Shown here: positions 11,443 to 26,352 of the stretch, piece by piece
How positions within the stretch are numbered: the first letter of the stretch is position 1
How the letters are laid out: each line of letters begins with the position of its first letter
Virus record (IMG/VR): IMGVR_UViG_3300034200_001185
Coordinates: 32,001-96,000 of that record
Direction: 5' to 3' (one strand)
DNA from: a virus
Length of the DNA stretch: 64,000 nucleotides
Translations under genes and position numbers: made by a program
The notes under the pieces: generated by a model
Seen by the model: the letters and a program-made list of their open reading frames with translations, nothing else
Databases searched by the model: none
What the model was told of the DNA's origin: nothing

Positions 11443-12657
11443 ATGTCCGACAAATCTCTAAACGAGCATAAGTCGAAGAGAGAGCGAGAGGTTAAGTCTG
11501 GTTTGTACGGCGGTATTGCCGGTGCATTACTTTCAAACGCAGCTTATACTTCTGGACAGCTAGCTCTTGGAAAGTCTCACTCAAATGCCGAAAAGAGATC
11601 GCAATCATTCGGATCTGACTACAATAAAGTAGTCGGCAGTATGAATCATGTTAAAGATATAGCAGGCGGAGCATCTGCAGGCGGACATAGCATTTACCGT
11701 ACTCCTACCGGTAAAAGCATTATTATTACGAGAGCACATGAACACGATGCTACCTTTCCATCTTTTAGTTCGAGAACTGCTGTTAATGATTCTTTAAGAG
11801 GCGCTCAGGTAAAAACTCTTCGAGGTTTTCCAATCGATAAGGGCGGAGATAAGGTTCCGGGATTAGCAGAGTTAGAAGATTACATCAAAAGTAATAAGCG
11901 CGATCAGATTAATGTACTTGCAACTAAGGGCAACCATTCTATTCTACTCCATGAACTCGGACATTCTGCCGGTACAAGGCACGGTACAGCATCTGGTGCG
12001 TTAGTACGCCTTGGTAATATTAATCCGCCATCTATGGCTACGAAAGGTGTTGCAGCAACAGGCGCAATGCTTACACACCGTAGAGCAGGCGAGAGTAAGG
12101 AAGATTACGAAAAGAGATCTAAGAAGAACGCGATTAAGTCCGGCTTACTTGGAAGCGCTATGTATATTCCAACACTCGCAGAAGAGGCACGCGCTACATT
12201 AAATGCAAATCGTCTTGGTAAGAAGCTAGGCGTTAAGGTAGATAATCGTAAGTTACTTCTTCCAGCATACGGTACATATGTAGCAGGCGCACTTGCACCG
12301 ACAGCTGTCGCCCTTGGCGCACACTACGGTAAAAGATTTGTAGAGCGAGAGATGGAAAAGAAGTCGAGTATGATTAGCTCAAAGGGCGATATACATATGG
12401 GAGCCGTAGGCACTCGTGCTAAGCTTCTTAAGGTACACGAAGGTCTTAAACGACTAATGGGCGCAAGTGTAGGTGGCGCAGTCGGTCTCGCTGCTACAGA
12501 TAATCCGATAGGTATGCTCGGCGGTATGGTAGTAGGTGGCGTACTTCAACACTACGCATCTACAAAAGGAAATATCACTAAAGCGACTAAAGAGATCGAA
12601 GAAGAAGAACGCGCTTTACTTAAACAAATGATCATGCGTAAAAAGAAGAATAAATAA
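11443..12657 (+). CDS. putative zincin metallopeptidase with Gly-zipper helices
   Basis: LLHELGH and downstream EEARAT; MEKKSS linker before a C-terminal Gly-zipper domain. Confidence 0.7.
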   Translation: MSDKSLNEHKSKREREVKSGLYGGIAGALLSNAAYTSGQLALGKSHSNAEKRSQSFGSDYNKVVGSMNHVKDIAGGASAGGHSIYRTPTGKSIIITRAHEHDATFPSFSSRTAVNDSLRGAQVKTLRGFPIDKGGDKVPGLAELEDYIKSNKRDQINVLATKGNHSILLHELGHSAGTRHGTASGALVRLGNINPPSMATKGVAATGAMLTHRRAGESKEDYEKRSKKNAIKSGLLGSAMYIPTLAEEARATLNANRLGKKLGVKVDNRKLLLPAYGTYVAGALAPTAVALGAHYGKRFVEREMEKKSSMISSKGDIHMGAVGTRAKLLKVHEGLKRLMGASVGGAVGLAATDNPIGMLGGMVVGGVLQHYASTKGNITKATKEIEEEERALLKQMIMRKKKNK

Positions 12658-12689
12658 CACACGAATAGGATTAGGTATAAGATGTAATA

Positions 12690-12746
12690 TACGTATTCTT
12701 AAACGGAATAGGGGTAGGGCGGAGGTGTACGTATTCTTAAACGGAA
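12690..12746. repeat. 19-bp direct repeat TACGTATTCTTAAACGGAA x2
   Basis: Copies at 12690-12708 and 12728-12746. Confidence 0.9.
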
Positions 12747-12747
12747 G

Positions 12748-13260
12748 GGGGGCATGCGTAGATAGACGGCATACTACGTATGTTCAAGATTATACCGAAT
12801 ATAAGCAAGACGTTTATGTATACGCAAATAAATCGTATACTTTTTATTTATTAAGCGTTACCACCGAAAGTTCAGACAATATCATTCGCTCTTGATAATT
12901 ACTTGACCGTGACCGTGTAGCGTAATCATGTACGTTATACGGATGTCGTTACACTACGTGCTTGACTACGTTATTATAGCGTACTTGACTGCGTGTTTAT
13001 AGATGTAGTGTAAACCGTATTCATAAATCCACGTAATACAACGCTCAGGTTATCATTTACTTTTAGTACATACGAGCTGGCCATACGCGAAATCACACGC
13101 TCACACTTATACTCTCCCCCTTCGCTTAACAGTAACGCGTATGGCCGGGTCGGGTATATCTTTACGGTTAAGACGTAGGGGCTAGGGGGATTAGCGTCAG
13201 TACAGTGTACGGTTTATCGCCGGTCGAGTTGCCCAACCCATACGTTGAACGCATACCCCC
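12748..13260. ncRNA. candidate large structured ncRNA or replication origin
   Basis: No ORF >=60 aa; 12-bp end-to-end inverted repeat, nested 7-bp helix, internal 11-bp helix. Confidence 0.4.
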
Positions 13261-13305
13261 GCTTAATTTTTTTTAGGGTATAAAATCAAACGAACATGTT
13301 CGTTG

Positions 13306-14643
13306 TTACTTCTTACTCTTCTTAGCGTGTTCTAGTTGTTCGTTATAATATTCTTTCATACTCTTTTTACGTAGTACGTATGGTAACGATCCTACACCAA
13401 GAGACGCAATAGCAAGGTCTCGCTTAATTTTTTTACCTATGGGAGTATTATTTTGCATATGATCCTTCATAGTAGCCGTAGAAACTCCATGTCTCTTCGC
13501 TATAAAGAATAACGATGGGAACAGCGCACCACTCACTAACGTACCGGATCTTACTAGATCGTTTGCTTCCCTTTTAGCTGTTTCGGTGCCCGCAATAATT
13601 TGTTCGTCGGATAAGCTCGATTTCTTTTCTAGTTTAGCCTTGTTTTGCTCTTCTTTTAACTTATTACGTCTCCAAAGTTTCATAGCAGCGTATGTACCAG
13701 CACCGTAAGCTATAGGTCTACCTGCCGTACTTTTCCAATAACTAGCATACGACGCCTTGAGCGGATTAGTGTTTATTTTAATTCCTAACGCTTTAGCTCT
13801 ACGTATAGCGCCTAAGTTAGCTCTACCTTCTTCGATAACTTGACCTGGAGCGCTTAAAGCAGTAGCACCTAACGTAGCAAGTCCTATATTTTTACCCATA
13901 CGCTTTTGGTAGTCCTTTTCGCTCTCGTCATTACGCTTTTTAGCGGTTGCTAAGAATGCAGCACCTGGTGCCATAGCAACAATATTACCTATCGTACCTG
14001 GAGTACTCGGTAAATGATAATTAGAAATAAATTTTGACGATATGCCACTTCTAGAAGCGTGCGTCATCTCGTGTAACATAGTACCGGCTTCACCAGTATG
14101 ATGTATAGATCCGCTAAAGTTCTTATCGTTGTATAACTCTTTGAGGCGTTTACTAACATCCTCCTTTTTAAGCTTAGCAATCAACTGATCTCGTTGTTGT
14201 CTGATTTCAGGTAATTCGTCTCTATATACTGAACTCTCGGCTATTCGGAACTTTGTATTTGCCAACTGTTCTGGAGTAAGATTCTTGTAATCCAAGTCAA
14301 TTTTAGTATTGGCTAATTCGTGCATTTTATATTCATCGCCACGTTGATTCGTATGAATGCTTAATACCTTCTTACCGTTTTCAGGATCTGTAAGTATATG
14401 AATACCGTCGTCTAATTTTTCAGCCTTATACGCGTCATGTATTTTTTTAATCTCGCTAGGATTTCTATTAAATTTAGCCGTAGGACTATTACGGTTAATA
14501 TAATTAGATGCAGGGTCGAGGACTAGTTTCTTACCTGCAAGCACACCAGCTCCGGCTATACCAGCGATTTCTGCGTTTTCTTTTGCGTACTGTTTAAGCT
14601 TCTTGTGCTTATCTTCTTCCTTTTGTTTCTTGTCGTTTGACAT
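13306..14643 (-). CDS. putative zincin metallopeptidase, paralog of 11443
   Basis: MLHEMTH and IEEGRAN; shared ESKxDYxKR segment; LEKKSS linker. Confidence 0.7.
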   Translation of the reverse strand: MSNDKKQKEEDKHKKLKQYAKENAEIAGIAGAGVLAGKKLVLDPASNYINRNSPTAKFNRNPSEIKKIHDAYKAEKLDDGIHILTDPENGKKVLSIHTNQRGDEYKMHELANTKIDLDYKNLTPEQLANTKFRIAESSVYRDELPEIRQQRDQLIAKLKKEDVSKRLKELYNDKNFSGSIHHTGEAGTMLHEMTHASRSGISSKFISNYHLPSTPGTIGNIVAMAPGAAFLATAKKRNDESEKDYQKRMGKNIGLATLGATALSAPGQVIEEGRANLGAIRRAKALGIKINTNPLKASYASYWKSTAGRPIAYGAGTYAAMKLWRRNKLKEEQNKAKLEKKSSLSDEQIIAGTETAKREANDLVRSGTLVSGALFPSLFFIAKRHGVSTATMKDHMQNNTPIGKKIKRDLAIASLGVGSLPYVLRKKSMKEYYNEQLEHAKKSKK

Positions 14644-14758
14644 TTCGCACTCCTATTCGTTAAGTTTCATAATTAATACTATAATAAAAGCTAATAAAAA
14701 ACATCATTACACTACGATTATTTTTTACACTCACGTAAGACGCAAGTTAGTCTCTCGC

Positions 14759-15205
14759 TTATTCAAGTAAAGATACGATGTCAGCCTTAATTTCGATCAT
14801 ATCAAGTATTTGTTGTACGCGAGTTGAGTACTCAAGGTAATCCGCTGAGAGAGGCGCGGTATCTCTCGATAGCATACATCTAGCGAGTTCACTTACCGGA
14901 ATGATCTGAATAAGCAGATCGAATTGGTGCAATGTAATGATACCGACAAGCTCTTTGCGAACATACATATATGCAATGTCATTCGCAGTAAACAAGTCAG
15001 TGACACTAAAGGCACGATTTAAAGGCGCACACTTAAGAAGTTCATCAACGCTCTTAAATCCCAAAAGTTGCTTTACGAACAACTCGTGGTAGATTGGAAC
15101 ACCTAAATCGTTACAACGATTTGTAACATCGCGCTCTTGAACGAGTACATCAAGTAGATTAAAGATCATCGTTACCACCTTGCTTCTCTGCCATTCTACG
15201 AGCAA
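14759..15205 (-). CDS. hypothetical protein
   Basis: ORF in early-type cluster; start uncertain. Confidence 0.65.
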   Translation of the reverse strand: MLVEWQRSKVVTMIFNLLDVLVQERDVTNRCNDLGVPIYHELFVKQLLGFKSVDELLKCAPLNRAFSVTDLFTANDIAYMYVRKELVGIITLHQFDLLIQIIPVSELARCMLSRDTAPLSADYLEYSTRVQQILDMIEIKADIVSLLE

Positions 15206-15395
15206 AGATTAGATCGCATAATGGTGTGCGCTTGGTTTCTACTACGCCAGAAACGCTTGTTTCAAATCTTCGTGACATGTACACAAAGAATTCGTTTAAG
15301 TCTACTTGTACCTCTAAGAAGTACGGACTTGTGCAGTTGCATACTTCGTATTGCTTGCATACGAGGCATACCTTAGTTTTAATTGTTCCGTTCAT
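15159..15395 (-). CDS. hypothetical protein, possible Zn finger
   Basis: CLVC..VCNC; SD GGGAG and conserved hairpin upstream. Confidence 0.65.
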   Translation of the reverse strand: MNGTIKTKVCLVCKQYEVCNCTSPYFLEVQVDLNEFFVYMSRRFETSVSGVVETKRTPLCDLIFARRMAEKQGGNDDL

Positions 15396-15762
15396 AACGA
15401 TTCTCCCTTCGATTGTGATTGAGCGTATTCGCTCTTACGTGGTTAATTGCATCCTCGCGTACATCTCTCGCTAAGTTAACAGCATTGTTTGTAACGCGAA
15501 TGAATTGGTCTGCTACGTCAAGTGCATCAAGTGCACGTGTTTTAACCCAGCGCCCAAACCGTTCATTGTCTAGGCTCTCGATTGCAGTACGTACATCATT
15601 TACCGCATTCTTTCCGCCCATAACACTTAGTAATAATTTACGAAGCATTCTTACTTTCCTTTTTAAGCACATAGTAGTTTTATCGAATTCGACGTGGAAA
15701 CATGGCGTGCTTTGGTATCCGTGTTCCATATAGTTATCACGGTTTCGTCTATATAATTGCAC
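15379..15762 (-). CDS. hypothetical protein
   Basis: ORF downstream of a GTGATAA promoter; start uncertain. Confidence 0.5.
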   Translation of the reverse strand: MQLYRRNRDNYMEHGYQSTPCFHVEFDKTTMCLKRKVRMLRKLLLSVMGGKNAVNDVRTAIESLDNERFGRWVKTRALDALDVADQFIRVTNNAVNLARDVREDAINHVRANTLNHNRRENRYERNN

Positions 15763-15812
15763 GTTTTACTATCATCAAAAACGGGCTAAGAAAAACGTTC
15801 TGGTCTTCGTTC
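15760..15812 (-). terminator. conserved terminator cassette
   Basis: TTTTACTATCATCAAAAACGGGCTAAGAAAAACGTTCTGGTCTTCG. Confidence 0.7.
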
Positions 15813-15839
15813 TTCACCCCCCATCACCCACCAGTTTTA

Positions 15840-16460
15840 TTACCAGATGTTGATTGGTGCCTCCAAGTACTCGTTCCCGTTCAACACAAATGTCAATCGA
15901 AAGATTTGAGAGCGGAGGTTGTCAGCCTTCCACTTGTCCACTGACTGTAGCTTGTGCGCTAGGTAACGACCCGCTTTAACCACCCCCCCAACGGTTTCCA
16001 CGATCTTGCAGTCGATGTTGTGTTCGAGTGCTAATCCGAAGATGATCTCGTATAAAGTTTCTGCCTCTTGGACGACAGCACGTTCTTCCAACCATCTTTC
16101 CCACTTACTGTTGTCCACCGCACTGCCTTCACCGCCTTCACCTTCACCACCATCAACCGCACCACCTTCACCACCCTTACCGCCGCGTGCAATTTCGTTT
16201 AATCTCATTGCTGCCCCCACCATGATCCCAACCTCCTGATCCATGTCAATACCCTTAGCCAATTTCTTGGCCATAGCAACGACATCTAGGGTCAACTCAT
16301 AGCCCTTAACCATACACTGACCGTTCGCATCCATTGCAGCTTTAACGAGGGACAATACCTCTTCGCGATTTTCTTCGAGATTGGATAATTGTGTGGATGC
16401 TACCTTGACGCTTTTTACCACTGCCTTAGCTGTGGAGGTAATGAATGAACGAATACTCAT
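15840..16460 (-). CDS. hypothetical protein with Gly/Glu linker
   Basis: 206-aa ORF; SD GGAG; conserved leader upstream. Confidence 0.75.
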   Translation of the reverse strand: MSIRSFITSTAKAVVKSVKVASTQLSNLEENREEVLSLVKAAMDANGQCMVKGYELTLDVVAMAKKLAKGIDMDQEVGIMVGAAMRLNEIARGGKGGEGGAVDGGEGEGGEGSAVDNSKWERWLEERAVVQEAETLYEIIFGLALEHNIDCKIVETVGGVVKAGRYLAHKLQSVDKWKADNLRSQIFRLTFVLNGNEYLEAPINIW

Positions 16461-16474
16461 CGTCTATTCTCCAT

Positions 16475-16648
16475 GCACCTATTGTGTTGTAGTCTTAGTA
16501 CAATGCGTACCTGTTACCACCGAAGTCAAGGCGTGCTTTTGTTCCTTTTCTTCTATATACTTATCACGCAATTTTACGCATTTTTGCACGTTTTACTATC
16601 ATCCAAAAAGGGCTAAGAAAAACGTTCTGGTCTTCGTTCTTCTTAGCG
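16475..16648 (-). promoter_or_regulatory. terminator, promoter and structured leader cassette
   Basis: Near-identical blocks at 21430-21590 and 25651-25760. Confidence 0.7.
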
Positions 16649-16654
16649 TATCGC

Positions 16655-17017
16655 CTACGCCCCCATCATAGATTCCCTACGTCTCTTTTCAAAGAAATAG
16701 GGTCCAACGAGAATTGCATTCGCGCCTGCAAAAATCACGAATGCTTCTGGTAGCAACATTAAGATAAATGTTGCTACACAGAAGGTACATGCTGCTTGAG
16801 CGACACCCTTCTTATCCGACCCAAACCAAAAGCTGATAAAGTGGATGCAAACGTTTGCGCTAAGCGCAAACTTGTAATTAATCATGTCCATAATCTGACA
16901 GACAGTCCACAAGTAAATCAAGCCAATAGCCAACCCGATAATCCCCTTTACAAGCTTATTACGACTCATAACATTCCCCAAAACACTTATGTAGTCTGTC
17001 GTCAGAAGGTGCGACAT
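16655..17017 (-). CDS. small membrane protein
   Basis: Three to four hydrophobic segments. Confidence 0.65.
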   Translation of the reverse strand: MSHLLTTDYISVLGNVMSRNKLVKGIIGLAIGLIYLWTVCQIMDMINYKFALSANVCIHFISFWFGSDKKGVAQAACTFCVATFILMLLPEAFVIFAGANAILVGPYFFEKRRRESMMGA

Positions 17018-17178
17018 TAAACTACCAAAGCTAGGTGTGTTCTTACCTTTCTTCTATATTCTTATCACTATATTTATACGCCTTTTGCATTTACTATCAT
17101 CGCGTAATTTAAGCTAAGAAAAACGCCTGACAACCGTTTTTCCAACCGTATTACTGTCTCGCGACATGATACGATTTA

Positions 17179-17745
17179 TTAGCTCTTTTGGTGGTGCGCT
17201 TTAAACTTACGTAATGCTTGCAACTTCATCTTATCGAACTTAGCGTATTCGTTATCCTTAGCTTTCGATGTATGTTCTAGGTCTCGAATGAGATCATCCA
17301 CATGTACGAATTCTGCACCTTCGAGTTGATCGCCTTCCTTACCAAGTAGGGATTTATCTCGCTGTCCCAAAGGAGCTGCCATAAAGTGCGATACTTCTCC
17401 GTGGAAGTCTCTTCCCTTTGCTAACGCTTGTTGGCGAAATGACTTATTCCAATTTACCTTCTTACTATACCCGAAGTGGTATGGATCGGAAGATGTTGAA
17501 TAGCCTGCCTCTTCGAGTAACTCTTTTCGAGTTGCTTCTGGTAAGCTCTCGCCTTGTTCCACGCCACCGCCTGGAAACTTATAGTTTGGATACTGACGCA
17601 AACCGCTACCAGATCCCTGACTTCTACTCGCTAAAATGCGCATGTCAGGTGTGTACAATAATGCTTGTACCTTAGGTCTGTATCGCTTTTCTTCCGCAAT
17701 CTTTTCAAGCTCGTCAACGAACGATTCAATTACTTTATTCTTCAT
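17179..17745 (-). CDS. Nudix hydrolase with N-terminal ESFVDELEKIA tag
   Basis: Nudix box FPGGGVEQGESLPEATRKELLEEAGY. Confidence 0.9.
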   Translation of the reverse strand: MKNKVIESFVDELEKIAEEKRYRPKVQALLYTPDMRILASRSQGSGSGLRQYPNYKFPGGGVEQGESLPEATRKELLEEAGYSTSSDPYHFGYSKKVNWNKSFRQQALAKGRDFHGEVSHFMAAPLGQRDKSLLGKEGDQLEGAEFVHVDDLIRDLEHTSKAKDNEYAKFDKMKLQALRKFKAHHQKS

Positions 17746-17756
17746 AAGTTTAATCC

Positions 17757-18389
17757 TTAATCTTGTTTACATACCTTACCATACATTTTTTCGCCATCTC
17801 GGACAAGTCCGTCATATTCATACTTAAACAGCATGTTTACTCTATCCTCATCGAATTCCATTCCGAAGTAGAACGTTGACAAGAAGTTTAGAACATCTTC
17901 CTTGATATCCTTTACGTACAATCCGTACTCATCCTTACCTTCCATCGCGGGAATGATTCTTTCAACCGATAACATATCACGCTTTGCATACGACAGATAA
18001 CGAAGTTCTGCTAAAAACTTACCTCGATACCCTTCGCTAGTAACCATGACTGATTTATGGTTAATACATTCATCAAGTGAACGAATAAAACGAAAGAACG
18101 ACATATTGCCAAATGACTTTACGTTTAGACAGAATACGTACTTAAGGCCTTGATAATCCACATCGCCAATAAGATCTTCTACGGTCATAAACTCGTGTCC
18201 AACGGCAGTCACTCTTTCGCCATATGAACATTCAAATCCATCTTTCGAACCAACCAATTCGAGAAACTTGCGTAGCCCATAATCGCCTTCGTAGATAACA
18301 GGTAATCTGTCATCGTCATGCGCATCGAGAAATACATTTGCGCTTTCCATGTCCTTACAGAACTTATATACTTTTACATTTCTTTCCAT
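17757..18389 (-). CDS. hypothetical protein
   Basis: 210-aa ORF with SD AAGGAAAA and hairpin upstream. Confidence 0.75.
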   Translation of the reverse strand: MERNVKVYKFCKDMESANVFLDAHDDDRLPVIYEGDYGLRKFLELVGSKDGFECSYGERVTAVGHEFMTVEDLIGDVDYQGLKYVFCLNVKSFGNMSFFRFIRSLDECINHKSVMVTSEGYRGKFLAELRYLSYAKRDMLSVERIIPAMEGKDEYGLYVKDIKEDVLNFLSTFYFGMEFDEDRVNMLFKYEYDGLVRDGEKMYGKVCKQD

Positions 18390-18435
18390 AATCGTTTTCC
18401 TTTCGATTGAGCGTATCCGCTCGCTTGCTTGTTGT

Positions 18436-19044
18436 TTATATAATCGGTGAAATTGTATCCTTTAAGTCCGATACTAATTCGATTGCTCTTACAGCGTCTG
18501 AGACGAATTCGTCTATGCTTTTATTTGCAGGCGTCTTGACATCAAATATCGTAGTCAAGTACTTGATGGGCTTAAAGGCGGTATTGACGTGATATCGATT
18601 GTACCGAAAGAATCGCTCGCCCTTAACCAACGGTTCTTGGTTGTACCCCTTATATACTTCGAGGGACATGTTATCTAGGTTTACCACGTATCCCCATTCG
18701 CAAAACAAGCTGTCTCGTGAGAATGAAGTTGAGTCTTGAAGGTAGAAATGATGTCCGCCTTGAATAATGATGTCGAGTATACCGCATCCAGCTGAACTGT
18801 GGAATGCTGACGAAAAATTATTTGCGTTCCATTCCTTTCCAAACTTAGCTTGTGCCTTTTCGTATGTTAACAGCGTAACGTTCTTAGAATCGAGTTGGTG
18901 CTTAAGGCTACTTACCTTTGACTTGTCGAGCATGAAGCGTAACAAGTAATCGGCGGTGTATGATGGATATCCATCGTATTGACCATATTGAGCAATAACG
19001 GTTTTCTTTTGGTAAATTACCATTACTAAATTACGAGTACCCAT
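18436..19044 (-). CDS. conserved phage hypothetical protein (MGTR..Y.Q.DGYP family)
   Basis: MGTRNL..AQYGQYDGYPS and EWGYVVNLD patterns. Confidence 0.75.
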   Translation of the reverse strand: MGTRNLVMVIYQKKTVIAQYGQYDGYPSYTADYLLRFMLDKSKVSSLKHQLDSKNVTLLTYEKAQAKFGKEWNANNFSSAFHSSAGCGILDIIIQGGHHFYLQDSTSFSRDSLFCEWGYVVNLDNMSLEVYKGYNQEPLVKGERFFRYNRYHVNTAFKPIKYLTTIFDVKTPANKSIDEFVSDAVRAIELVSDLKDTISPII

Positions 19045-19253
19045 AATCGTTCTCCTTTTAGGGTTAGTTTGTATCGTATTCGATACTCTATTATCACGGA
19101 ATACAATCGTTAATTTTAATGACTACCGGATATATGTCCGAACTTTCATACGTTATATTAAATATATGCGCACTATCATCACCAAAATAATGGCTAAGAA
19201 AAACGGACATCGTGGACATGTCAATTTTCCTAACACCCCAACCTTACGTAGCT

Positions 19254-19778
19254 TTATACGCTACGCCATCCTAGGCCAGGTAAGTTTCGAACTGATTCCC
19301 TTTCGAGAAGATCTCGAAGAGAAACTGTTTTATTGCTTTCTAACCACTCAGCGTACGCTTTTTCAAGGCGTGTTCTGAATGAAGAGAGGATGTGTGTCTT
19401 GGCCACTGCTATCCCATCTTCATATAAGCTGAATACAACATACGCTTTTCTGTCCGCATTGATCGTTTGTGTTAGATCCTTTAGAGATCGCAGAATATCT
19501 TTGCGATCAAGTGTTGTGGTCTTTGCGCCTGGATCTACTCTTAAACCTAGCTGTTCGCGCACACCTTGAATAGAATTTAAGCACATTGTGTAATGTGCTA
19601 TCGCTGATCGAATTTCTCCTACAGTGTACTTGAGATGTTCCGGTGTTTCCATTTCTCCTTCGTAATCAAATACGTGATCAATGAGTTCGTCATCCATTCG
19701 ATCCCAGGGCATGAATGGCAACATGCTATGGAGTTTAAGACGTTTTGTCTTAACGTCAAATTTTACATCAAATTCCAT
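19254..19778 (-). CDS. hypothetical protein
   Basis: 174-aa ORF with conserved hairpin/SD spacer. Confidence 0.75.
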   Translation of the reverse strand: MEFDVKFDVKTKRLKLHSMLPFMPWDRMDDELIDHVFDYEGEMETPEHLKYTVGEIRSAIAHYTMCLNSIQGVREQLGLRVDPGAKTTTLDRKDILRSLKDLTQTINADRKAYVVFSLYEDGIAVAKTHILSSFRTRLEKAYAEWLESNKTVSLRDLLERESVRNLPGLGWRSV

Positions 19779-19825
19779 AATCGTTTTTCCTTTTCGATTG
19801 AGCGTATCCGCTCGATTGTTGTTGT

Positions 19826-20431
19826 TTATAGGCTCTTTACAATGTCTTGCATTGTTTCGCCAAGTGAGGCGGCGAACTTAGCAGTAAGTTCATTGCGAGT
19901 ATCGCTGATTAGGCGAACTAGCTTGACAATCTTTGGTAGCTTAACTCTTAGCGTACCTGTGCAATTTCTTGCCGCTCTGACGAGATCCATTGCGCGATCT
20001 CTGTCATACATGTGTACAAGGATATACTCAACCTCGTTGATGAAGTTGATTACTTGTTCCGCAGTCACATCGGCTGGCGTATCGAAGTATCCATACAACG
20101 ATCTATCTTCAGGTAGCGCTTTCATCTTCACGAGCATCCAGCTGAACGCTTTCTTCATATCCCAAATCACTTCGGGAAAGATCACATTCGCTAAGTTGAT
20201 CGCTTGCGCAACTTGTGGTGCGACTGATCTAAGATCCGCTGCAAATCTTGACGCAAGCTTTCTGCTTTGTTCCAGGCTTAAATCGAAGGTTGCATCACCG
20301 TTCAATACGATCATTTCCGCGGTAGAGATGATCTCTTCCGCAGATGCTAGCCACCCAAAGATCACTTGGAATACTTCCATATCGCCGTTGAGTCCAAAAG
20401 TATTCAATGCTGTTTTAACTTGTTCTTTCAT
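19826..20431 (-). CDS. hypothetical helical protein
   Basis: 201-aa ORF with conserved hairpin/SD spacer. Confidence 0.75.
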   Translation of the reverse strand: MKEQVKTALNTFGLNGDMEVFQVIFGWLASAEEIISTAEMIVLNGDATFDLSLEQSRKLASRFAADLRSVAPQVAQAINLANVIFPEVIWDMKKAFSWMLVKMKALPEDRSLYGYFDTPADVTAEQVINFINEVEYILVHMYDRDRAMDLVRAARNCTGTLRVKLPKIVKLVRLISDTRNELTAKFAASLGETMQDIVKSL

Positions 20432-20486
20432 AATCGTTTTCCTTTCGATTGTGATTGAGCGTATCCGCTCGCTTTATTGTTGTTGT

Positions 20487-20990
20487 TTAGAAACCGTACA
20501 TTTTTACCATTACGATGCTAATCTGTTTACTTTTTGCGTATTCATGCCACATTGCTGGGAACGATTCATACAATTCTCTGTCCACAATCATCGCTCTTGG
20601 TGAGTCGTCTTGCACGACTAGATGTACATCTCCCCTAGGTAAACCGAGGTCTAACTTTTCGACTGTTTGGTCTACCTCTGCGAGAAGTACGGTAACACAG
20701 TTTGAACCCTTGTTAGCAACTGCCTTGCAAGCAGCTACTGCCAAGTCTTCGTTGACACCGTTTCGGACGGTAGCCCACACCACCGTGTGATTATCCTGCT
20801 TTGAGTACGCAATCACACAATTCAATTCGACTGGTCCCAGCCTTAGTAGACGCTTTGTATCGCCTATAAGCTCCCAAGTCTTTAGATCCCCCTTGCGCTC
20901 GATATCAATACCGAGCAATGTAGCGGTTACATCGCAGTTGATATTTTCCGCTTCGATCTTCAACTCTTTTTCTGTCATGTTTAAGCTCAT
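20487..20990 (-). CDS. hypothetical protein
   Basis: 167-aa ORF behind GTGATAA promoter at 21037. Confidence 0.75.
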   Translation of the reverse strand: MSLNMTEKELKIEAENINCDVTATLLGIDIERKGDLKTWELIGDTKRLLRLGPVELNCVIAYSKQDNHTVVWATVRNGVNEDLAVAACKAVANKGSNCVTVLLAEVDQTVEKLDLGLPRGDVHLVVQDDSPRAMIVDRELYESFPAMWHEYAKSKQISIVMVKMYGF

Positions 20991-21155
20991 TTTTAAGCCC
21001 TTTCTTTAGCTATGGTTTATCGTATCCGACACTATATTATCACGGTAATATCGATAAAATTGCACGTTTTACTATCATCAAAAATAAGCTAAGAAAAACG
21101 GTTGCCAGTCGCTTTTCTTTCGATCACATGCTGTCTTACGACATGATGTAATCGA

Positions 21156-21419
21156 TTACCACTTAACTACTATTGGAGTAGGAAGTGGGTACGAAGATAA
21201 ATCTTCGTACTTGATGTTGGGCGCGATTGTCTTCATCTGTTCTAATGTACTTGCTAATACTCTGTCTCTATAACTGCCATCAGAAAGATTAAATCTGATA
21301 TATTTGCCGTTCTTTGCAGAGTTTACTGTACACCAACCGATAATTCTTAGCCCTGTTGTTGCGACGTTTTGTGAAGCTGTTGTCGCTAGCTTATCGAGTA
21401 ACTTGCCTTTGAGCATTTC
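21156..21419 (-). CDS. hypothetical protein
   Basis: Likely start MLKGKLL after SD GGAG and conserved leader. Confidence 0.65.
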   Translation of the reverse strand, partial: EMLKGKLLDKLATTASQNVATTGLRIIGWCTVNSAKNGKYIRFNLSDGSYRDRVLASTLEQMKTIAPNIKYEDLSSYPLPTPIVVKW

Positions 21420-21596
21420 GTTTCTCCGTGCACGTAAGTTGTAGTCTGCGTACAAAGCGTACATAACCACCGAAGTTAAGGCGTGCTTTTTTGTTCCTTT
21501 TCTTCTATATTCTTATCACGACTTTTTACGCATTTTTGCACGTTTTACTATCATCAAAAATAGGCTAAGAAAAGCGGTTGCCAATCGCTTTTCCAA

Positions 21597-21836
21597 CTAT
21601 TGACCAGGGAAGATAGAGCAGAAGCCCTTTCCTTCCTTATCAATAAGGAAGACGCCCCCGCGTCTTTCACATGCCTTTTTTCCCACACCCCTGAGTACCT
21701 TTAATCCAGCAGCCGTATGAGCTGCCGGATCGTTGTTCCGTGAGAGAGCGTCCAGCTCTCGCACAATCTTACACTTCCAATCGCAACCCCAAACATCACC
21801 ACCGAATAAAACCGCCAAACACAAAATAGCTTTCAT
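21597..21836 (-). CDS. small secreted Cys-containing protein
   Basis: MKAILCLAVLFGG signal-like N-terminus; CDWKC..C..C. Confidence 0.55.
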   Translation of the reverse strand: MKAILCLAVLFGGDVWGCDWKCKIVRELDALSRNNDPAAHTAAGLKVLRGVGKKACERRGGVFLIDKEGKGFCSIFPGQ

Positions 21837-21935
21837 AGCCACTCCATAAGACTGCCAAAGAGTAATCGGAGCAAAGTGCAGTCATTAGTTTCTCTGCTCC
21901 ATATTCTTATCACGGAATATTACCCCATTTTTCGC

Positions 21936-23165
21936 CTAAACTCTACGAGCCATTAGAAGCCCTTTTACGCCATTTCCGTAATCAAGTAATAGCGGCTGTC
22001 GTATTGACGCAGGAAAGTACACTACGCAATCAGATCTTTCGCTAAGTAACATAGACGATAGGTACTTACAATCTACGTTATATATATTTTCGTTAGAACT
22101 CGTTAATTTACATTCAGGTCCTAGATCGGTTAGTAAGGTGCTTTCTTCTCTAACATCTCGAAAAATGCTTGACGTAGTATCTCCTCTAATTACAACTGTA
22201 CGAGATGTAAGTAGTAAACCTTCGAACTCAAATTCGCATATAACGGTTTCTACCTTAATCTTGTTTCCATCATCGTCTTGCAAATTCTTGTAATACCATA
22301 ACGACTTATTCACGCAATCCTCTAAAACACTTAGCGGTATTGCGTATGTGTAAGTGTCGGTGTGCAACGCTTTATCTATAACTACGTTCATATCCGAGTA
22401 ACAATTAAACACGCAACCCGCTTGAAAGAACAATTGTTGTTTCTCGTGTTTCATAATTCCGTCTATGACTAAGCTCAGATCCTTATTGTTATCTTCTCGC
22501 ACAGGTATATTCCATATCTTATTGTCCGGAACATACCCACTGATACTAAGAACAGCGCTTATTGACCGACTCATATCTTTGAGTAACGGTAAGTATAGTT
22601 TACTGTTCTCATTCAAATCGGTTAGTTGATTTTCGAATTCGAAACAGACCATACGATAGCCATCTGTTACGCACAAGTATTTACCTTGTACTTGCAAGCA
22701 CCAGAGCTTTTCTCGATTGCTCTTGCTTGCAAGCATTACGTAACCTGTATCAACGATACTATTCAAAGCGTGTTCTGGGATATCAATACCAACAGAAACG
22801 CTAAATACCATCGGATTGTTTTCTACGATAATTCGGTAGTGATCCGAGTCCTCGTAAATTTCATCTACCGCTCCCCACTTAAAATCCTCATACATCACGT
22901 TTCGGTCATCCGTAAGGCGTAAGTAGGCCCATTCGCTTTTAGCCTTACTTTTTAGCAATGATAGTGCTTGGCTAACTTCTTCGTCCTCTACAAATTGAGT
23001 CAGATCAATTGATACGAATGAACTAGCCAAATAATCTTGAGAATCCTTGCTCTCGTAGAGAGAGTAAAGAAATACACGCTTACCAAATAACCCTAAAAAA
23101 GCGGAGCCATTTGTGTCTTGATAACGTCCAGATAGTAAAATTTTTTGTACGATACTTGTGATCAT
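21936..23165 (-). CDS. divergent DNA polymerase III beta sliding-clamp-like protein
   Basis: CVTDGYRM (cf. ATDGHRL); C-terminal VDCKYL..QPLLL..GLLMARRV (cf. FN..YL..P...LIMPMR). Confidence 0.6.
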   Translation of the reverse strand: MITSIVQKILLSGRYQDTNGSAFLGLFGKRVFLYSLYESKDSQDYLASSFVSIDLTQFVEDEEVSQALSLLKSKAKSEWAYLRLTDDRNVMYEDFKWGAVDEIYEDSDHYRIIVENNPMVFSVSVGIDIPEHALNSIVDTGYVMLASKSNREKLWCLQVQGKYLCVTDGYRMVCFEFENQLTDLNENSKLYLPLLKDMSRSISAVLSISGYVPDNKIWNIPVREDNNKDLSLVIDGIMKHEKQQLFFQAGCVFNCYSDMNVVIDKALHTDTYTYAIPLSVLEDCVNKSLWYYKNLQDDDGNKIKVETVICEFEFEGLLLTSRTVVIRGDTTSSIFRDVREESTLLTDLGPECKLTSSNENIYNVDCKYLSSMLLSERSDCVVYFPASIRQPLLLDYGNGVKGLLMARRV

Positions 23166-23217
23166 ATAATTTTCCTTGTTTTATTAATGAGCGTATCCGC
23201 TACTGTTTAACACTTAA

Positions 23218-24066
23218 TTACTGTATGTTGTCTCGTAATTGTTTCATTGTACGAGGTATAAATAAATAACCTTCGGGGATTATGATGTCCCCTTCTTCAA
23301 TGTCCTTTACTTCCTTGGAAGTATGTGCGCTTGGTAGAGCAAACTCATTTACCATTTCGAGAAAACGAGTTGCAAGCGACTCAGCCCTACTGCGTAATTC
23401 ACCTTCTGGTATCTCAGGTGTTTCGTTGCATTGGTGATCTACAACAAGTCGCATTGTATCGCACTTGCCAATGGCCATACCCAAAGTCAGCACTTCGGGT
23501 AATGATCCGTGATTGACCATGTGCCGAATGATGTATCTACAAGGAAACAGTAGATCGATTTCCATGAACTTAACCATGACCGCTGCAAGTGTCATGAAGA
23601 AGGACGCTTGATTATCCTTGTACTTGAGGTATATATCAAGCACGCCTCTGGTTCCTTTATGTACTAGATCATTATCGCCATTTCTAGCACCTTCGTTGAT
23701 GAAGGAACAGAACTCGTACATATCCACTGTATCCAGCAGTCCGCGAATTTCATCGGGCAATTCATCGATCATTTTGCTAATCGATGGAACATTTCGAATA
23801 AGCACCATAACGCTGATTAGCACTCTTGGCTTTGCATCAATTACAGTATGTTCTACGAGATCCACATACTTACGAATGTTTACGTAATCCTTTACGCACT
23901 TCAGTTGTACTTGTTGCTCATCAGTGATTGCGTCTGCACCGATTAAAGCAAACAACACGGTTACAAACAATTGTTCTTCGAAATCCGCAATGATTTCTTT
24001 ACGTCTTTCGCTGCTTGTTTTACGGTCCAGAAATTCGCCTACTAGCTTGATAAAATCTTTATCCAT
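23218..24066 (-). CDS. hypothetical helical protein
   Basis: 282-aa ORF, co-oriented. Confidence 0.75.
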   Translation of the reverse strand: MDKDFIKLVGEFLDRKTSSERRKEIIADFEEQLFVTVLFALIGADAITDEQQVQLKCVKDYVNIRKYVDLVEHTVIDAKPRVLISVMVLIRNVPSISKMIDELPDEIRGLLDTVDMYEFCSFINEGARNGDNDLVHKGTRGVLDIYLKYKDNQASFFMTLAAVMVKFMEIDLLFPCRYIIRHMVNHGSLPEVLTLGMAIGKCDTMRLVVDHQCNETPEIPEGELRSRAESLATRFLEMVNEFALPSAHTSKEVKDIEEGDIIIPEGYLFIPRTMKQLRDNIQ

Positions 24067-24078
24067 TTTGTTTATCCT

Positions 24079-24633
24079 TTATCTTGTTACATGAGCGCAG
24101 TATGCACATACGCTGTGTGAATAGTATTCGTCTTTAGTGCGGGTATCCCCACAGCGAATACAATCGAATGTTCCATCTTCCGAATCATCGTCATTAAAGA
24201 CTTTTAATTCGAGTTGTTCGGGTTCAAATTGAGGTTGTTCGAGTTGAGGTTGTTCGAGTTGAGGGCGTCTTGAAATAAAACGCTTGCCGATTTCGTAATG
24301 AATTGCCATCATTACAAATTCTACGTGACGTAGATGATTACTTGCAAAACCGTTGATCTCGTGAAGTAATCCGGTTAACTCCAATGCGCTTCTTTCTGCC
24401 ATAAGCGCTTCTGGAATTGAAGGCTTTGCCAAGTCCCAATGATAACTTGGCTTGAATACGATCACATCGCAGTATCCGTTTTCTTCAAGTTGATTTTCGA
24501 ACAACTGAAGGTATTCACGAATTTCCATCTTGAGAATGGAGCTGAGATTGTTCTCAGAGTCTCCGTCTGAGAGACATGCGTCAACAGCATTACGAAAGCT
24601 GTTTACAAGGTTGTATAGTTTTAGGTTTTTCAT
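24079..24633 (-). CDS. hypothetical protein with C-terminal Zn ribbon
   Basis: CIRC..CAYC; QPQLE repeats. Confidence 0.7.
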   Translation of the reverse strand: MKNLKLYNLVNSFRNAVDACLSDGDSENNLSSILKMEIREYLQLFENQLEENGYCDVIVFKPSYHWDLAKPSIPEALMAERSALELTGLLHEINGFASNHLRHVEFVMMAIHYEIGKRFISRRPQLEQPQLEQPQFEPEQLELKVFNDDDSEDGTFDCIRCGDTRTKDEYYSHSVCAYCAHVTR

Positions 24634-24771
24634 GATGATTCCTTTCGTGTGAAAAAGTTAAGCGTATTCGCTTGTTTTTGTCATAGTATTATCACATCTT
24701 AGAACGTATAATTGCGATCGGATTTGACATAGATAAAAAATGCATTATCATGCATACGAAGGAGATACACC

Positions 24772-24999
24772 ATGCAAAACATAGAACTAATGAAGATCAA
24801 AACCGAAATATTACAAATTGCGTCTCAGATTGCGCTAACAAATAATGATAACAATTCGCTTATTAATGAAATAAAAACAGAGTACGCGTGTGTTACAGGA
24901 GATGACTTTACAATCCATACCGCAAAGTCAGAAAACATAAGCGCGGATGTCATTATCGAAATTGCACAAAAGCTATTCGATTTTGTATCGAAAGATTAA
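24772..24999 (+). CDS. hypothetical protein
   Basis: SD AAGGAG; stop codon abuts the tRNA. Confidence 0.7.
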   Translation: MQNIELMKIKTEILQIASQIALTNNDNNSLINEIKTEYACVTGDDFTIHTAKSENISADVIIEIAQKLFDFVSKD

Positions 25000-25073
25000 G
25001 GGCCTGTAGCTCAGTAGGTTAGAGCAGCGGTCTCATAAACCGCGGGTCAACGGTTCAATCCCGTTCGGGCCCA
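25000..25073 (+). tRNA. tRNA with CAU anticodon, probably tRNA-Ile2
   Basis: GGGCCTG/CGGGCCC acceptor; GCGGT-CTCATAA-ACCGC anticodon arm; TTCAATC T-loop; no encoded CCA. Confidence 0.9.
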
Positions 25074-25076
25074 AGT

Positions 25077-25163
25077 GGAAAGATGGCAGAGTGGCCGAAT
25101 GCGTTTGACTCGAAATCAAAAAACGATTTAGTTCGTTCGAGGGTTCGAATCCCTCTCTTTCCT
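25077..25163 (+). tRNA. tRNA-Ser(CGA)
   Basis: GGAAAGA/TCTTTCC acceptor; TTTGA-CTCGAAA-TCAAA anticodon arm; long variable arm; GGTTCGAATCC. Confidence 0.9.
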
Positions 25164-25384
25164 TTATTACTTGACTAAGATAAAAACGTGTGCTAAATAA
25201 TACAACGTGGTTACCGTGCATCCGGTTTTCCTGCGGTCGTCGTCACCGTACCACAGAGGCGACATCTATTTAATATAAAATATGCCTACGTATATTAAGC
25301 GAAGAAGAATGGCGTCAGCGTATGTAGGGGTAAACGATGATTCCAATTTTCGCCATTTCTTGGAATCTACTATCATCAAAATCG

Positions 25385-25422
25385 GGCTAAGAAAAACGTT
25401 CTGGTATTCGTTTTTCTTAGCC
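25385..25422 (-). terminator. perfect 14-bp terminator stem
   Basis: GGCTAAGAAAAACG-N10-CGTTTTTCTTAGCC; the arm includes the 25427 stop region. Confidence 0.8.
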
Positions 25423-25426
25423 AACG

Positions 25427-25636
25427 CTATTCGGATAAACCGTTTAGCATTAGCTTTTTGATTGTATTCGCTTCTTCGTCTGAAGATGCAAATACTAGGC
25501 CGTGAAAACCAGCAACAGTTTTCACATTGAGGACGTTATTTGCGCGCTTGAACACGCAAATAACGTGGCCAAACCAAACGTGCGCATTAGATGCTGTCAC
25601 GTCTAAAGTCTCATACTTGGTGCTTTTTGCTGCCAT
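25427..25636 (-). CDS. hypothetical protein
   Basis: SD AGGAG; conserved leader and promoter upstream. Confidence 0.7.
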   Translation of the reverse strand: MAAKSTKYETLDVTASNAHVWFGHVICVFKRANNVLNVKTVAGFHGLVFASSDEEANTIKKLMLNGLSE

Positions 25637-25884
25637 AGTAATCTCCTAGTGCACCTATTATGTTGTAGTCTCCGTACAAAGCGTACATAACCACCGAATT
25701 AAAGGCGTGCTTTTATTCCTTTTCTTCTATATTCTTATCACGACTTTTTACGCATTTTTGTAAATTGCGTAATAACACAATATCGTATAGAATGTAAGCT
25801 AAAGACGCATACCTGGCGCATTCGCACCATCCATCCACCAAACCTCTGCGTCTATGTATTATCACATTTAAACGGAGTTATTTT

Positions 25885-26352
25885 ATGTACAACAGAGTAA
25901 TACTTGGCGGTATAGGCGGAGCAGGTCTAGGCGCTTTAAAAGCGTCAAAACAAAACGCAGTTCTTAAGAAAATGGATAACGAAACAGATGACGAATTTAA
26001 GGCTAGAAAGCGTATGAATATTATAACTGGCACGGGTCTAGGCGCAGGTCTAGGTGCAGGTGCGGTACACGGCATTACTACGAAAAATCAGATGCAAACA
26101 GGCGGTATGATAGCGGGGTTACTTAGCGGTGAGATTGCGTCGTCAGGCGGATCATATAGCCTTAAAGATATGGACGCGGAGAATCAACAAGCGCTTATTA
26201 ATAGACAACGTGCGTTTGGAGCCGGTGGCGCATTACTTGGTGGAACAGCCGGTAGAATGATTGGTAGCGATAAGATACCCGGCTTAAATAAAAAAGCCTC
26301 CCACGAAGAGAGGCTTATTCATCTGCTATCTAGCAATCATCGTAAGTACTAA
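25885..26352 (+). CDS. multi-Gly-zipper membrane protein
   Basis: GGIGGAGLG, GLGAGLGAG helices; NKKAS near C-terminus. Confidence 0.8.
   Translation: MYNRVILGGIGGAGLGALKASKQNAVLKKMDNETDDEFKARKRMNIITGTGLGAGLGAGAVHGITTKNQMQTGGMIAGLLSGEIASSGGSYSLKDMDAENQQALINRQRAFGAGGALLGGTAGRMIGSDKIPGLNKKASHEERLIHLLSSNHRKY

Follow-up and report, generated by a model that had tools for sequence, protein, structure and literature searches.

A conserved, single-copy non-coding module in a family of uncultured freshwater phages, with a hairpin loop found in both orientations

The 64,000-nucleotide stretch of DNA analysed here (the window; bases 32001-96000 of the 133,533-bp IMG/VR phage record IMGVR_UViG_3300034200_001185) contains a 648-bp gap between two convergent genes, at positions 12658-13305, and this gap holds a module of about 620 bp that is a family-wide conserved, single-copy non-coding element of uncultured freshwater phages. 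We suggest that the module as a whole works in cis at the level of DNA, and our leading guess is that it is the replication origin of the phage or a unique site of similar kind for protein binding; the DNA-level reading overall is given a probability of roughly 0.45. It is preferred because the module is conserved, single-copy and bracketed by stop signals, carries unique motifs, and has neither a conserved fold nor a conserved reading frame. A preliminary description of the gap had proposed a novel ~510-nt RNA closed by a long-range helix, or else an origin or packaging site; a conserved functional non-coding element is indeed present, and it is the large RNA closed by a long-range helix that finds no support. 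The same description took the gap to be the only long one in a dense genome, and it is the longest stretch free of open reading frames (ORFs), and the longest non-coding one, in the whole 133.5-kb record: the ORF script ranked it third, behind two longer "gaps" that fall within an RpoB-like ORF open at the contig end and thus do not count.

Eight further distinct copies of the module were recovered from lake and freshwater metagenomes (L002/L003, L004, L007, L008, L009, which is also L016/L017, L014, L020 and L021), and L005/L006 are identical to the window. The related contigs were reached through the flanking proteins (L002/L003, L004, L005/L006, L007, L008, L014, L016, L020 and L021) and L009, which lies on the same contig as L017, through a DNA pattern in JGI metagenomes. 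L007, L008, L009 and L014 make up a second clade. The module aligns from ~12686 to exactly 13305 (alignments A3, A4 and A6), and the right edge is identical across all complete copies. Within the genome it is single-copy, and no second similar sequence of at least 17 nt occurs there, which removes a diversity-generating retroelement template, a CRISPR-like mini-array and antisense targets elsewhere from the list of candidates. In every copy the module occupies the junction of convergent plus- and minus-strand gene blocks, and its immediate neighbours vary: the 445-aa gene on the right is swapped for 91/112-aa genes in one clade, and in other relatives small ORFs or 322-830-nt inserts lie between the module and its neighbours. 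The module junction is a hotspot of gene gain. Strain-specific small ORFs beside it encode ~98 aa (L004:2641-2938), 84 aa with a faint Gly-zipper match (L002; L002:5311-6055) and 120 aa.

Module identity is 88-90% in loci whose flanking proteins are only 47-61% identical, and 75-77% overall between the window and the second clade. The history of the element is discordant with that of the flanking gene, as in L002, where the flanks are the most diverged (50-61% aa identity) but the element is nearly the same as in the window. The module edges coincide with mosaic joints or have them close by; the similarity of L002 stops 83 nt inside the 445-aa gene. When the clade of the window is compared with the second clade, the 404-aa neighbour gene shows 68-73% DNA identity and 51-57% identity at third codon positions, and blocks of the module range from about 50% to about 92% (Table 1). 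The conserved blocks change far more slowly than such neutral-like sites nearby, and rates that differ so strongly from block to block speak for purifying selection on particular parts of the module. The constraint does not appear to be that of a protein. Homologue alignments contain no conserved ORF in the module, and a protein-coding gene in the gap was rejected as no frame is both conserved and under purifying selection. A 28-codon minus-strand frame, MRSTYGLGNSTGDKPYTVLTLIPLAPTS (13168-13254), is open in all homologues, with seven non-synonymous and no synonymous changes between the clades, and is probably a by-product of sequence conservation. A frame of 29-40 codons was rejected as a gene because its start codon is lost in L007 and L014 and because it reaches into the hypervariable segment V1.

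Two segments of the module, V1 and V2, change in quite different ways. V1 consists in the window of two 23-nt units with TTGACT; in L002 the pieces found in the window are shuffled and partly inverted, and in the second clade units of 10/14 nt, poor in G, are arrayed in tandem over 56-113 nt. V1 is dispensable and slippage-prone, since L020 has lost ~88 nt between the repeats GTAGCGTAA and GTAGTGTAA. V2 is a loop of 46-50 nt between the arms of an 11-17-bp inverted repeat (13073-13089 / 13136-13152); the arms are invariant and the loop diverges and flips. One orientation is found in the window, L005, L006, the X2 contig and L020, and the opposite one in L002/L003, L004 and the X11 contig, which equals the window over 139 nt apart from the orientation of V2. 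In the second clade V2 of L009 runs opposite to that of L007, L008 and L014. Sequence comparison thus implies at least two independent flips of V2, one per clade. Among the assembled contigs there is one V2 orientation per run.

The flip joints lie at 13078/13146 and 13079/13147, and an 11-nt perfect core is common to both. A single-nucleotide polymorphism in the arm moves with the flip, appearing as G in the 5' arm of L007/L014 and as C in the 3' arm of L009. Breakpoints at a perfect repeat, recurrence in separate lineages and a carried arm variant are all properties that a hairpin-loop inversion by template switching would leave, and the V2 flip matches that process. Loop inversion by replication template switching is documented for loops of 4-8 nt (PMC8794818) and shares with V2 the perfect-repeat bounds, the recurrence in independent lineages, the carried arm polymorphism and the absence of any need for a recombinase; it differs in that the loop here is 46-50 nt and the hairpin lies within a larger conserved module. 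The loop flip is a known mutational process. The small inversions of plastid genomes are reportedly hairpin-loop inversions as well.

Table 1. Features of the gap 12658-13305, with flanking genes and block identities between the two clades
Feature	Position	Strand	Basis or remark
Flanking gene, 404-aa HExxH protein	11443-12657	+	ORF and protein comparison
ORF-free gap	12658-13305	.	ORF listing
Conserved module, ~620 bp	~12686-13305	.	homologue alignments
Two direct repeats, TACGTATTCTTAAACGGAA plus G-rich tail (also called TTAAACGGAAGGGG repeats)	12690-12714, 12728-12752	+	38-nt period; conserved in A4/A6
Block identity between clades	12727-12790		about 92%
5' arm of long-range 12-nt complement	12748-12759	.	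chance-level, no covariation
AT-rich hairpin GTATACG-N9-CGTATAC then TTTTTATTTATT	12818-12852	+	weak terminator-like, -5.8 kcal/mol
Block identity between clades	12871-12910		about 50%
Invariant tandem TGACCG TGACCG TG (invariant TGACCGTGACCGTG)	12904-12917	+	alignment
V1, hypervariable repeat-rich segment	12919-13005	.	contig joint 12919/13005
Most conserved block, 67 nt	13006-13072	.	
Block identity between clades	13013-13086		68/74
Left arm of 17-nt inverted repeat; perfect 11-nt core 13079-13089	13073-13089	.	
V2, 46-nt loop in both orientations	13090-13135	.	
Right arm of inverted repeat	13136-13152	.	
93-nt conserved block with G runs (AGGGGCTAGGGGG 13176-13188) and palindrome GTACAGTGTAC	13153-13245	.	
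Block identity between clades	13162-13285		85-92%
3' arm of long-range complement, terminal C5 run (13256-13260)	13249-13260	.	
16-nt palindrome AACGAACATGTTCGTT, then on the minus strand TGATTTTAT	13289-13304	-	weak terminator-like, -3.4 kcal/mol
Flanking gene, 445-aa HExxH paralog	13306-14643	-	31% identity over 159 aa; missing at this position in second clade

Several features of sequence composition set the module apart from the rest of the genome. The 19-nt direct repeat noted at its left end in the preliminary description is exact (12690-12708 and 12728-12746) and continues to 25 nt at 92%. Genome-wide, TTAAACGGAA is confined to the direct-repeat region, and GTGACCGTG in the TGACCG tandem is unique. 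A+T content reaches 83% at 12826-12855. The words TACGT, ACGTA, ATACG and CGTAT attain their highest density of the genome in the gap (12 of each, ~2.2-2.4 being expected, or ~5-fold), and the gap holds five of the 27 G5/C5 runs in 133 kb. At the right end of the module a T8 run lies between the C5 run and the 16-nt palindrome, which is just past the stop of the 445-aa gene and of which other homologues keep only a 4-bp stem. ACG is replaced by CTA at 13209-13211 in L004 and in the otherwise window-like X2 contig, which breaks the GTACAGTGTAC palindrome and may be a further multi-base footprint of template switching or recombination.

If the module is a DNA-level cis element, the conserved blocks, the two G-tailed direct repeats and the TGACCG tandem would be protein-binding sites, and the AT-rich tracts at 12826-12856 and 13262-13290 would be easily melted DNA. 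The 11-17-bp inverted repeat could extrude a hairpin or cruciform in a single-stranded or supercoiled region; its loop would flip through replication template switching or inverted-repeat-mediated recombination, as a by-product of the hairpin with no programmed switch, and V1 would be a spacer that the element can do without and that is prone to slippage. Like the iteron and AT-rich origins of phages and plasmids (lambda ori, P1 oriR, T7 primary origin, T4 oriF/oriG), the module is a non-coding cis region that occurs once and combines direct repeats with AT-rich tracts and an inverted repeat; in mosaic genomes it behaves as a unit of its own. Two conserved 25-nt direct repeats and the 83% A+T tract are candidates for the iterons and the unwinding tract of such an origin, but the clade-specific V1 repeats are dispensable.

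A number of observations weigh against this reading, most of them being points at which the module departs from the origins just named. No initiator gene is adjacent, and the genes for a DnaB-like helicase and a DnaG-like primase are ~70 kb from the gap. The GC-skew analysis recommended in the preliminary description placed the module at a local maximum of cumulative skew, which together with the convergent junction is terminus-like, though the skew tracks gene orientation. V1, the most iteron-like part, can be deleted, as it is in L020, and perfectly conserved runs of 40-110 nt exceed typical protein-binding sites. The high identity within the clade of the window may be due in part to recent mosaic recombination instead of selection. 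A DNA-level function is also putative. The best candidate for a DnaA box agreed at six of nine positions by eye and was not used.

The minus-strand intergenic regions of 14644-25900 carry a repeated early-gene cassette, in which a long hairpin (GCTAAGAAAA..CG / CG..TTTTCTTAGC) is followed first by GATGATAGTAAAACG and next by a promoter-like (C)GTGATAA-N1-3-TATAG/TATATG; this promoter-like motif also precedes minus-strand genes elsewhere (2754, 42445, 98674). This early promoter (GTGATAA...TATAG) is absent from the module, as is any conserved canonical sigma-70 promoter. Three look-alikes were examined and set aside: a minus-strand match at 13046-13066 is partial and has no TATAG part; the TTGACT repeats of V1, which are not conserved and have been lost from L020, lack a -10 element at the proper spacing; and TTATTATAG, considered as a recurrent upstream motif, does not recur. 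A consensus scan of 12300-13700 found no intrinsic terminators, and the two terminator-like hairpins in Table 1 are AT-rich and weak. In L004 and L009 the minus-strand early genes have terminator cassettes that stop directly short of the module. Weak terminator-like hairpins or full terminator cassettes thus enclose the module from both sides.

The proposal of a large structured RNA was built on helices, and every sequence quoted for them is in place. The 12-bp complement between GGGGGCATGCGT (12748-12759) and ACGCATACCCCC (13249-13260) comprises 11 Watson-Crick pairs and one C.A on the plus strand, which is G.U on the minus strand; the nested ACGTATG (12776-12782) and CATACGT (13239-13245) are present, as are GTATACG (12818-12824) and CGTATAC (12834-12840); and the internal helix of GGCCATACGCG (13079-13089) and CGCGTATGGCC (13136-13146) extends to 17 nt at 88%. 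Presence is a different matter from significance. An inverted repeat of 12 nt with at most one mismatch arises in 47% of dinucleotide shuffles, so that the supposed closing helix is nothing special, and the perfect 7-mer helices (30 observed, 24.5 +/- 6.6 in shuffles) fare no better. Such chance-level helices are expected because copies of short, partly palindromic words of the TACGT/ATACG type pair among themselves, and helices spotted by eye amid such words are no evidence for RNA. Only the 17-nt inverted repeat stands out, being reached in 3.5% of shuffles and having a single-stranded DNA hairpin z of -4.1 (-6.2 in L008). A miniature inverted-repeat transposable element or other transposon whose terminal repeats would be the 12-nt arms was also considered and rejected, as the module is single-copy and its conservation passes beyond the arms.

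Homologues lend no support to the long-range fold. The central pair of the 12-bp helix is never formed on the plus strand and another of its pairs forms in two of seven sequences, with no covariation, and the centre of the nested 7-bp helix is broken in four of seven. The single clean compensatory pair (C-G to U-A, second clade) lies in the AT-rich hairpin at 12818-12840, where the outer pairs are lost. The RNAalifold covariation term contributes -0.13 and -1.42 of about -83 kcal/mol, and double changes affect six of 108-119 predicted pairs, mostly in palindromic TACGT words. The power of this comparison is low as most predicted pairs are invariant, and the result is an absence of support, not a disproof. 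Column shuffles of blocks without the inverted repeat gave z of -0.8 to +0.6 and a structure conservation index (SCI) of 0.39-0.62 on both strands; the block with the inverted-repeat arms gave z of about -2 on both strands. Folding z of single sequences is inconsistent across homologues and strands (plus and minus strand, respectively: window, -2.4 / -1.9 and 0.0; L004, -0.4 and -0.2; L008, -1.8 and -3.2; L009, -1.2 and -1.5). Rfam (4227 models including GOLLD, ROOL and tmRNA) matched nothing in the gap at the gathering threshold, its sole match there at E up to 5 being a plant miRNA model with 20 bits against a threshold of 180, which is meaningless; five homologous loci gave no match at E up to 1. 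Missing covariation in homologues had been named in the preliminary description as favouring a DNA element, and on that ground the evidence leans to the DNA alternative; a large structured RNA is not supported.

The 20 runs that contain the stretch are lake and freshwater metagenomes, and none recorded as RNA contains it. Wastewater run X11, for which the RNA-Seq label is a guess and which may be DNA, yielded short contigs only at 12770-13285 and none on the flanks, in two strain types, and was not used either way.

An RNA that depends little on a conserved fold is the alternative that survives best, and we consider it doubtful. The module would be a new ncRNA gene (non-coding RNA gene) of ~250-600 nt, transcribed from a non-early promoter of its own. 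Domains that vary or can be left out would correspond to V1 and the hairpin loop, and the transcript would act through primary sequence or through tertiary contacts that so few substitutions do not expose. In a variant it would be the pre-primer RNA of an R-loop origin, with G runs of the transcript pairing with the C5 run at 13256-13260; RNA II of ColE1 is a pre-primer of this kind. Long, strictly conserved blocks broken by modules of variable length are what large ncRNAs look like, and the size class (about 500-650 nt), the phage location and the conserved blocks with variable inserts recall GOLLD and ROOL in particular. The plus strand of the window folds somewhat better than shuffles, several one-sided changes preserve plus-strand G.U pairs, the concentration of G5/C5 runs in the gap would suit the R-loop variant or another RNA, and the terminator-like signals of the neighbours bracket the module as they would an independent gene. 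Unlike GOLLD and ROOL, the module has no Rfam family even at E up to 1-5, and a single hairpin apart it shows neither covariation nor a fold that is conserved: the covariation term is about 0, as is z in all blocks outside the inverted repeat, and the favourable folding z is not reproduced over homologues and strands. For such a gene the module offers neither a copy of the phage promoter motif, nor a conserved canonical sigma-70 promoter, nor a canonical intrinsic terminator. The more specific proposal of an undescribed phage RNA of ~450-600 nt or R-loop-origin pre-primer, in which V1 is optional and the hairpin tolerates or exploits the swap of a purine-rich for a pyrimidine-rich loop, seems to us rather unlikely.

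Another explanation dispenses with any further function. The module would be a transcription boundary and recombination linker, a bidirectional stop zone between the convergent early and other genes, and its similarity among phages would stem mainly from frequent homologous recombination at module junctions. Its constant position at the convergent junction, the exchange of neighbours among phages (the 445-aa gene, the 91/112-aa genes, small ORFs and inserts), the conflict between element and flanking-gene relationships in L002, the mosaic joints at or near the edges and the weak terminator-like hairpins on both edges are all consistent with this. In lying where genes are gained, lost and exchanged, the module also resembles the terminator/promoter cassettes known from module junctions of T4-type phages, and this genome carries such repeated cassettes next door. 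However, ~435 nt between the terminator-like signals are conserved, and blocks of ~92% identity stand beside blocks of 50%, a pattern for which recombination alone is insufficient. The ordinary cassettes of the phage are also far shorter (~60-120 nt) and occur in many copies, whereas the module is ~620 nt, unique and without the cassette promoter. We judge this explanation unlikely.

A packaging or genome-end site (pac, cos or a terminal-repeat boundary) at the edge of the early block would likewise be a unique site with direct and inverted repeats bordering the early region, and the large terminase, which is GpA-like, is distant from those of Bacillus phages and Herelleviridae (<=30% identity). 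Herelleviridae have long terminal repeats, and terminase type is linked to end type. Such a site is nonetheless improbable here, as the terminase gene lies ~35 kb from the module, two independent assemblies break elsewhere and within genes, and several contigs (L005-L009) cross the module. Least probable is a programmed invertible switch in which a recombinase flips the 46-50-bp segment to toggle a function. Like the Hin/Gin/Cin switches and invertible promoters, the segment is flanked by an inverted repeat, here with strictly conserved arms, and exists in both orientations; each of the two clades has both, and they also distinguish haplotypes that are otherwise identical. The segment is, however, about an order of magnitude shorter than in those switches, its loop is poorly conserved with no recognisable promoter or coding cargo, and a search of the near-complete 133.5-kb record at E up to 0.1 turned up no serine or tyrosine recombinase (PF00239, PF00589), other recombinase families not having been searched. 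A spacer of ~46-50 bp is very short for recombinase synapsis and ideal for template switching, which, as set out above, inverts loops without a recombinase.

The DNA-level cis element that we favour would fall into a familiar class. The module itself matches nothing described, but non-coding cis regions that occur once in the genome of a large phage are well known. The family is one of ~133-kb freshwater phages that encode an RNA polymerase beta-like subunit and are otherwise almost unannotated, and it has no large non-coding region besides the module. Should the module prove to be an origin or some other unique cis site, it would open a way to study how an uncultured lineage replicates or packages its DNA, and it would serve as a marker by which to track the family in lake metagenomes. 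Taken together, a 46-50-nt loop flipped twice, a V1 that is shuffled or deleted and neighbours that are swapped illustrate clearly how template switching and slippage mutate a conserved phage hairpin in nature.

DNA similarity searches against 50,697 phage records and 72,556 plasmids gave no match for the module, nor did DNA pattern scans of IMG/VR and GTDB genomes, and protein-guided scans of IMG/VR found no relatives. Searches of PHROGs and Pfam with the flanking and nearby small proteins gave no informative domains and no replication domains. The two convergent flanking paralogs carry the HExxH motifs LLHELGH and MLHEMTH.

The record is probably a near-complete circular permutation of the genome. 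An independent assembly of 133,396 bp is by computation a permutation of it, with an offset of ~7.4 kb. An RNA polymerase beta-like ORF (Rpb2 domains 3 and 6) exits the right contig end (L013:14971-17532) and seemingly resumes at the left (L010:2-3877); comparison of the contig ends showed no direct join between the two RpoB-like end frames and no terminal overlap. The record looks like a nearly complete circular assembly rather than 72% of a genome. A second cluster of C5/C6 runs, with the G runs on the coding minus strand, lies at 15817-16660 in the intergenic cassettes of the early region.

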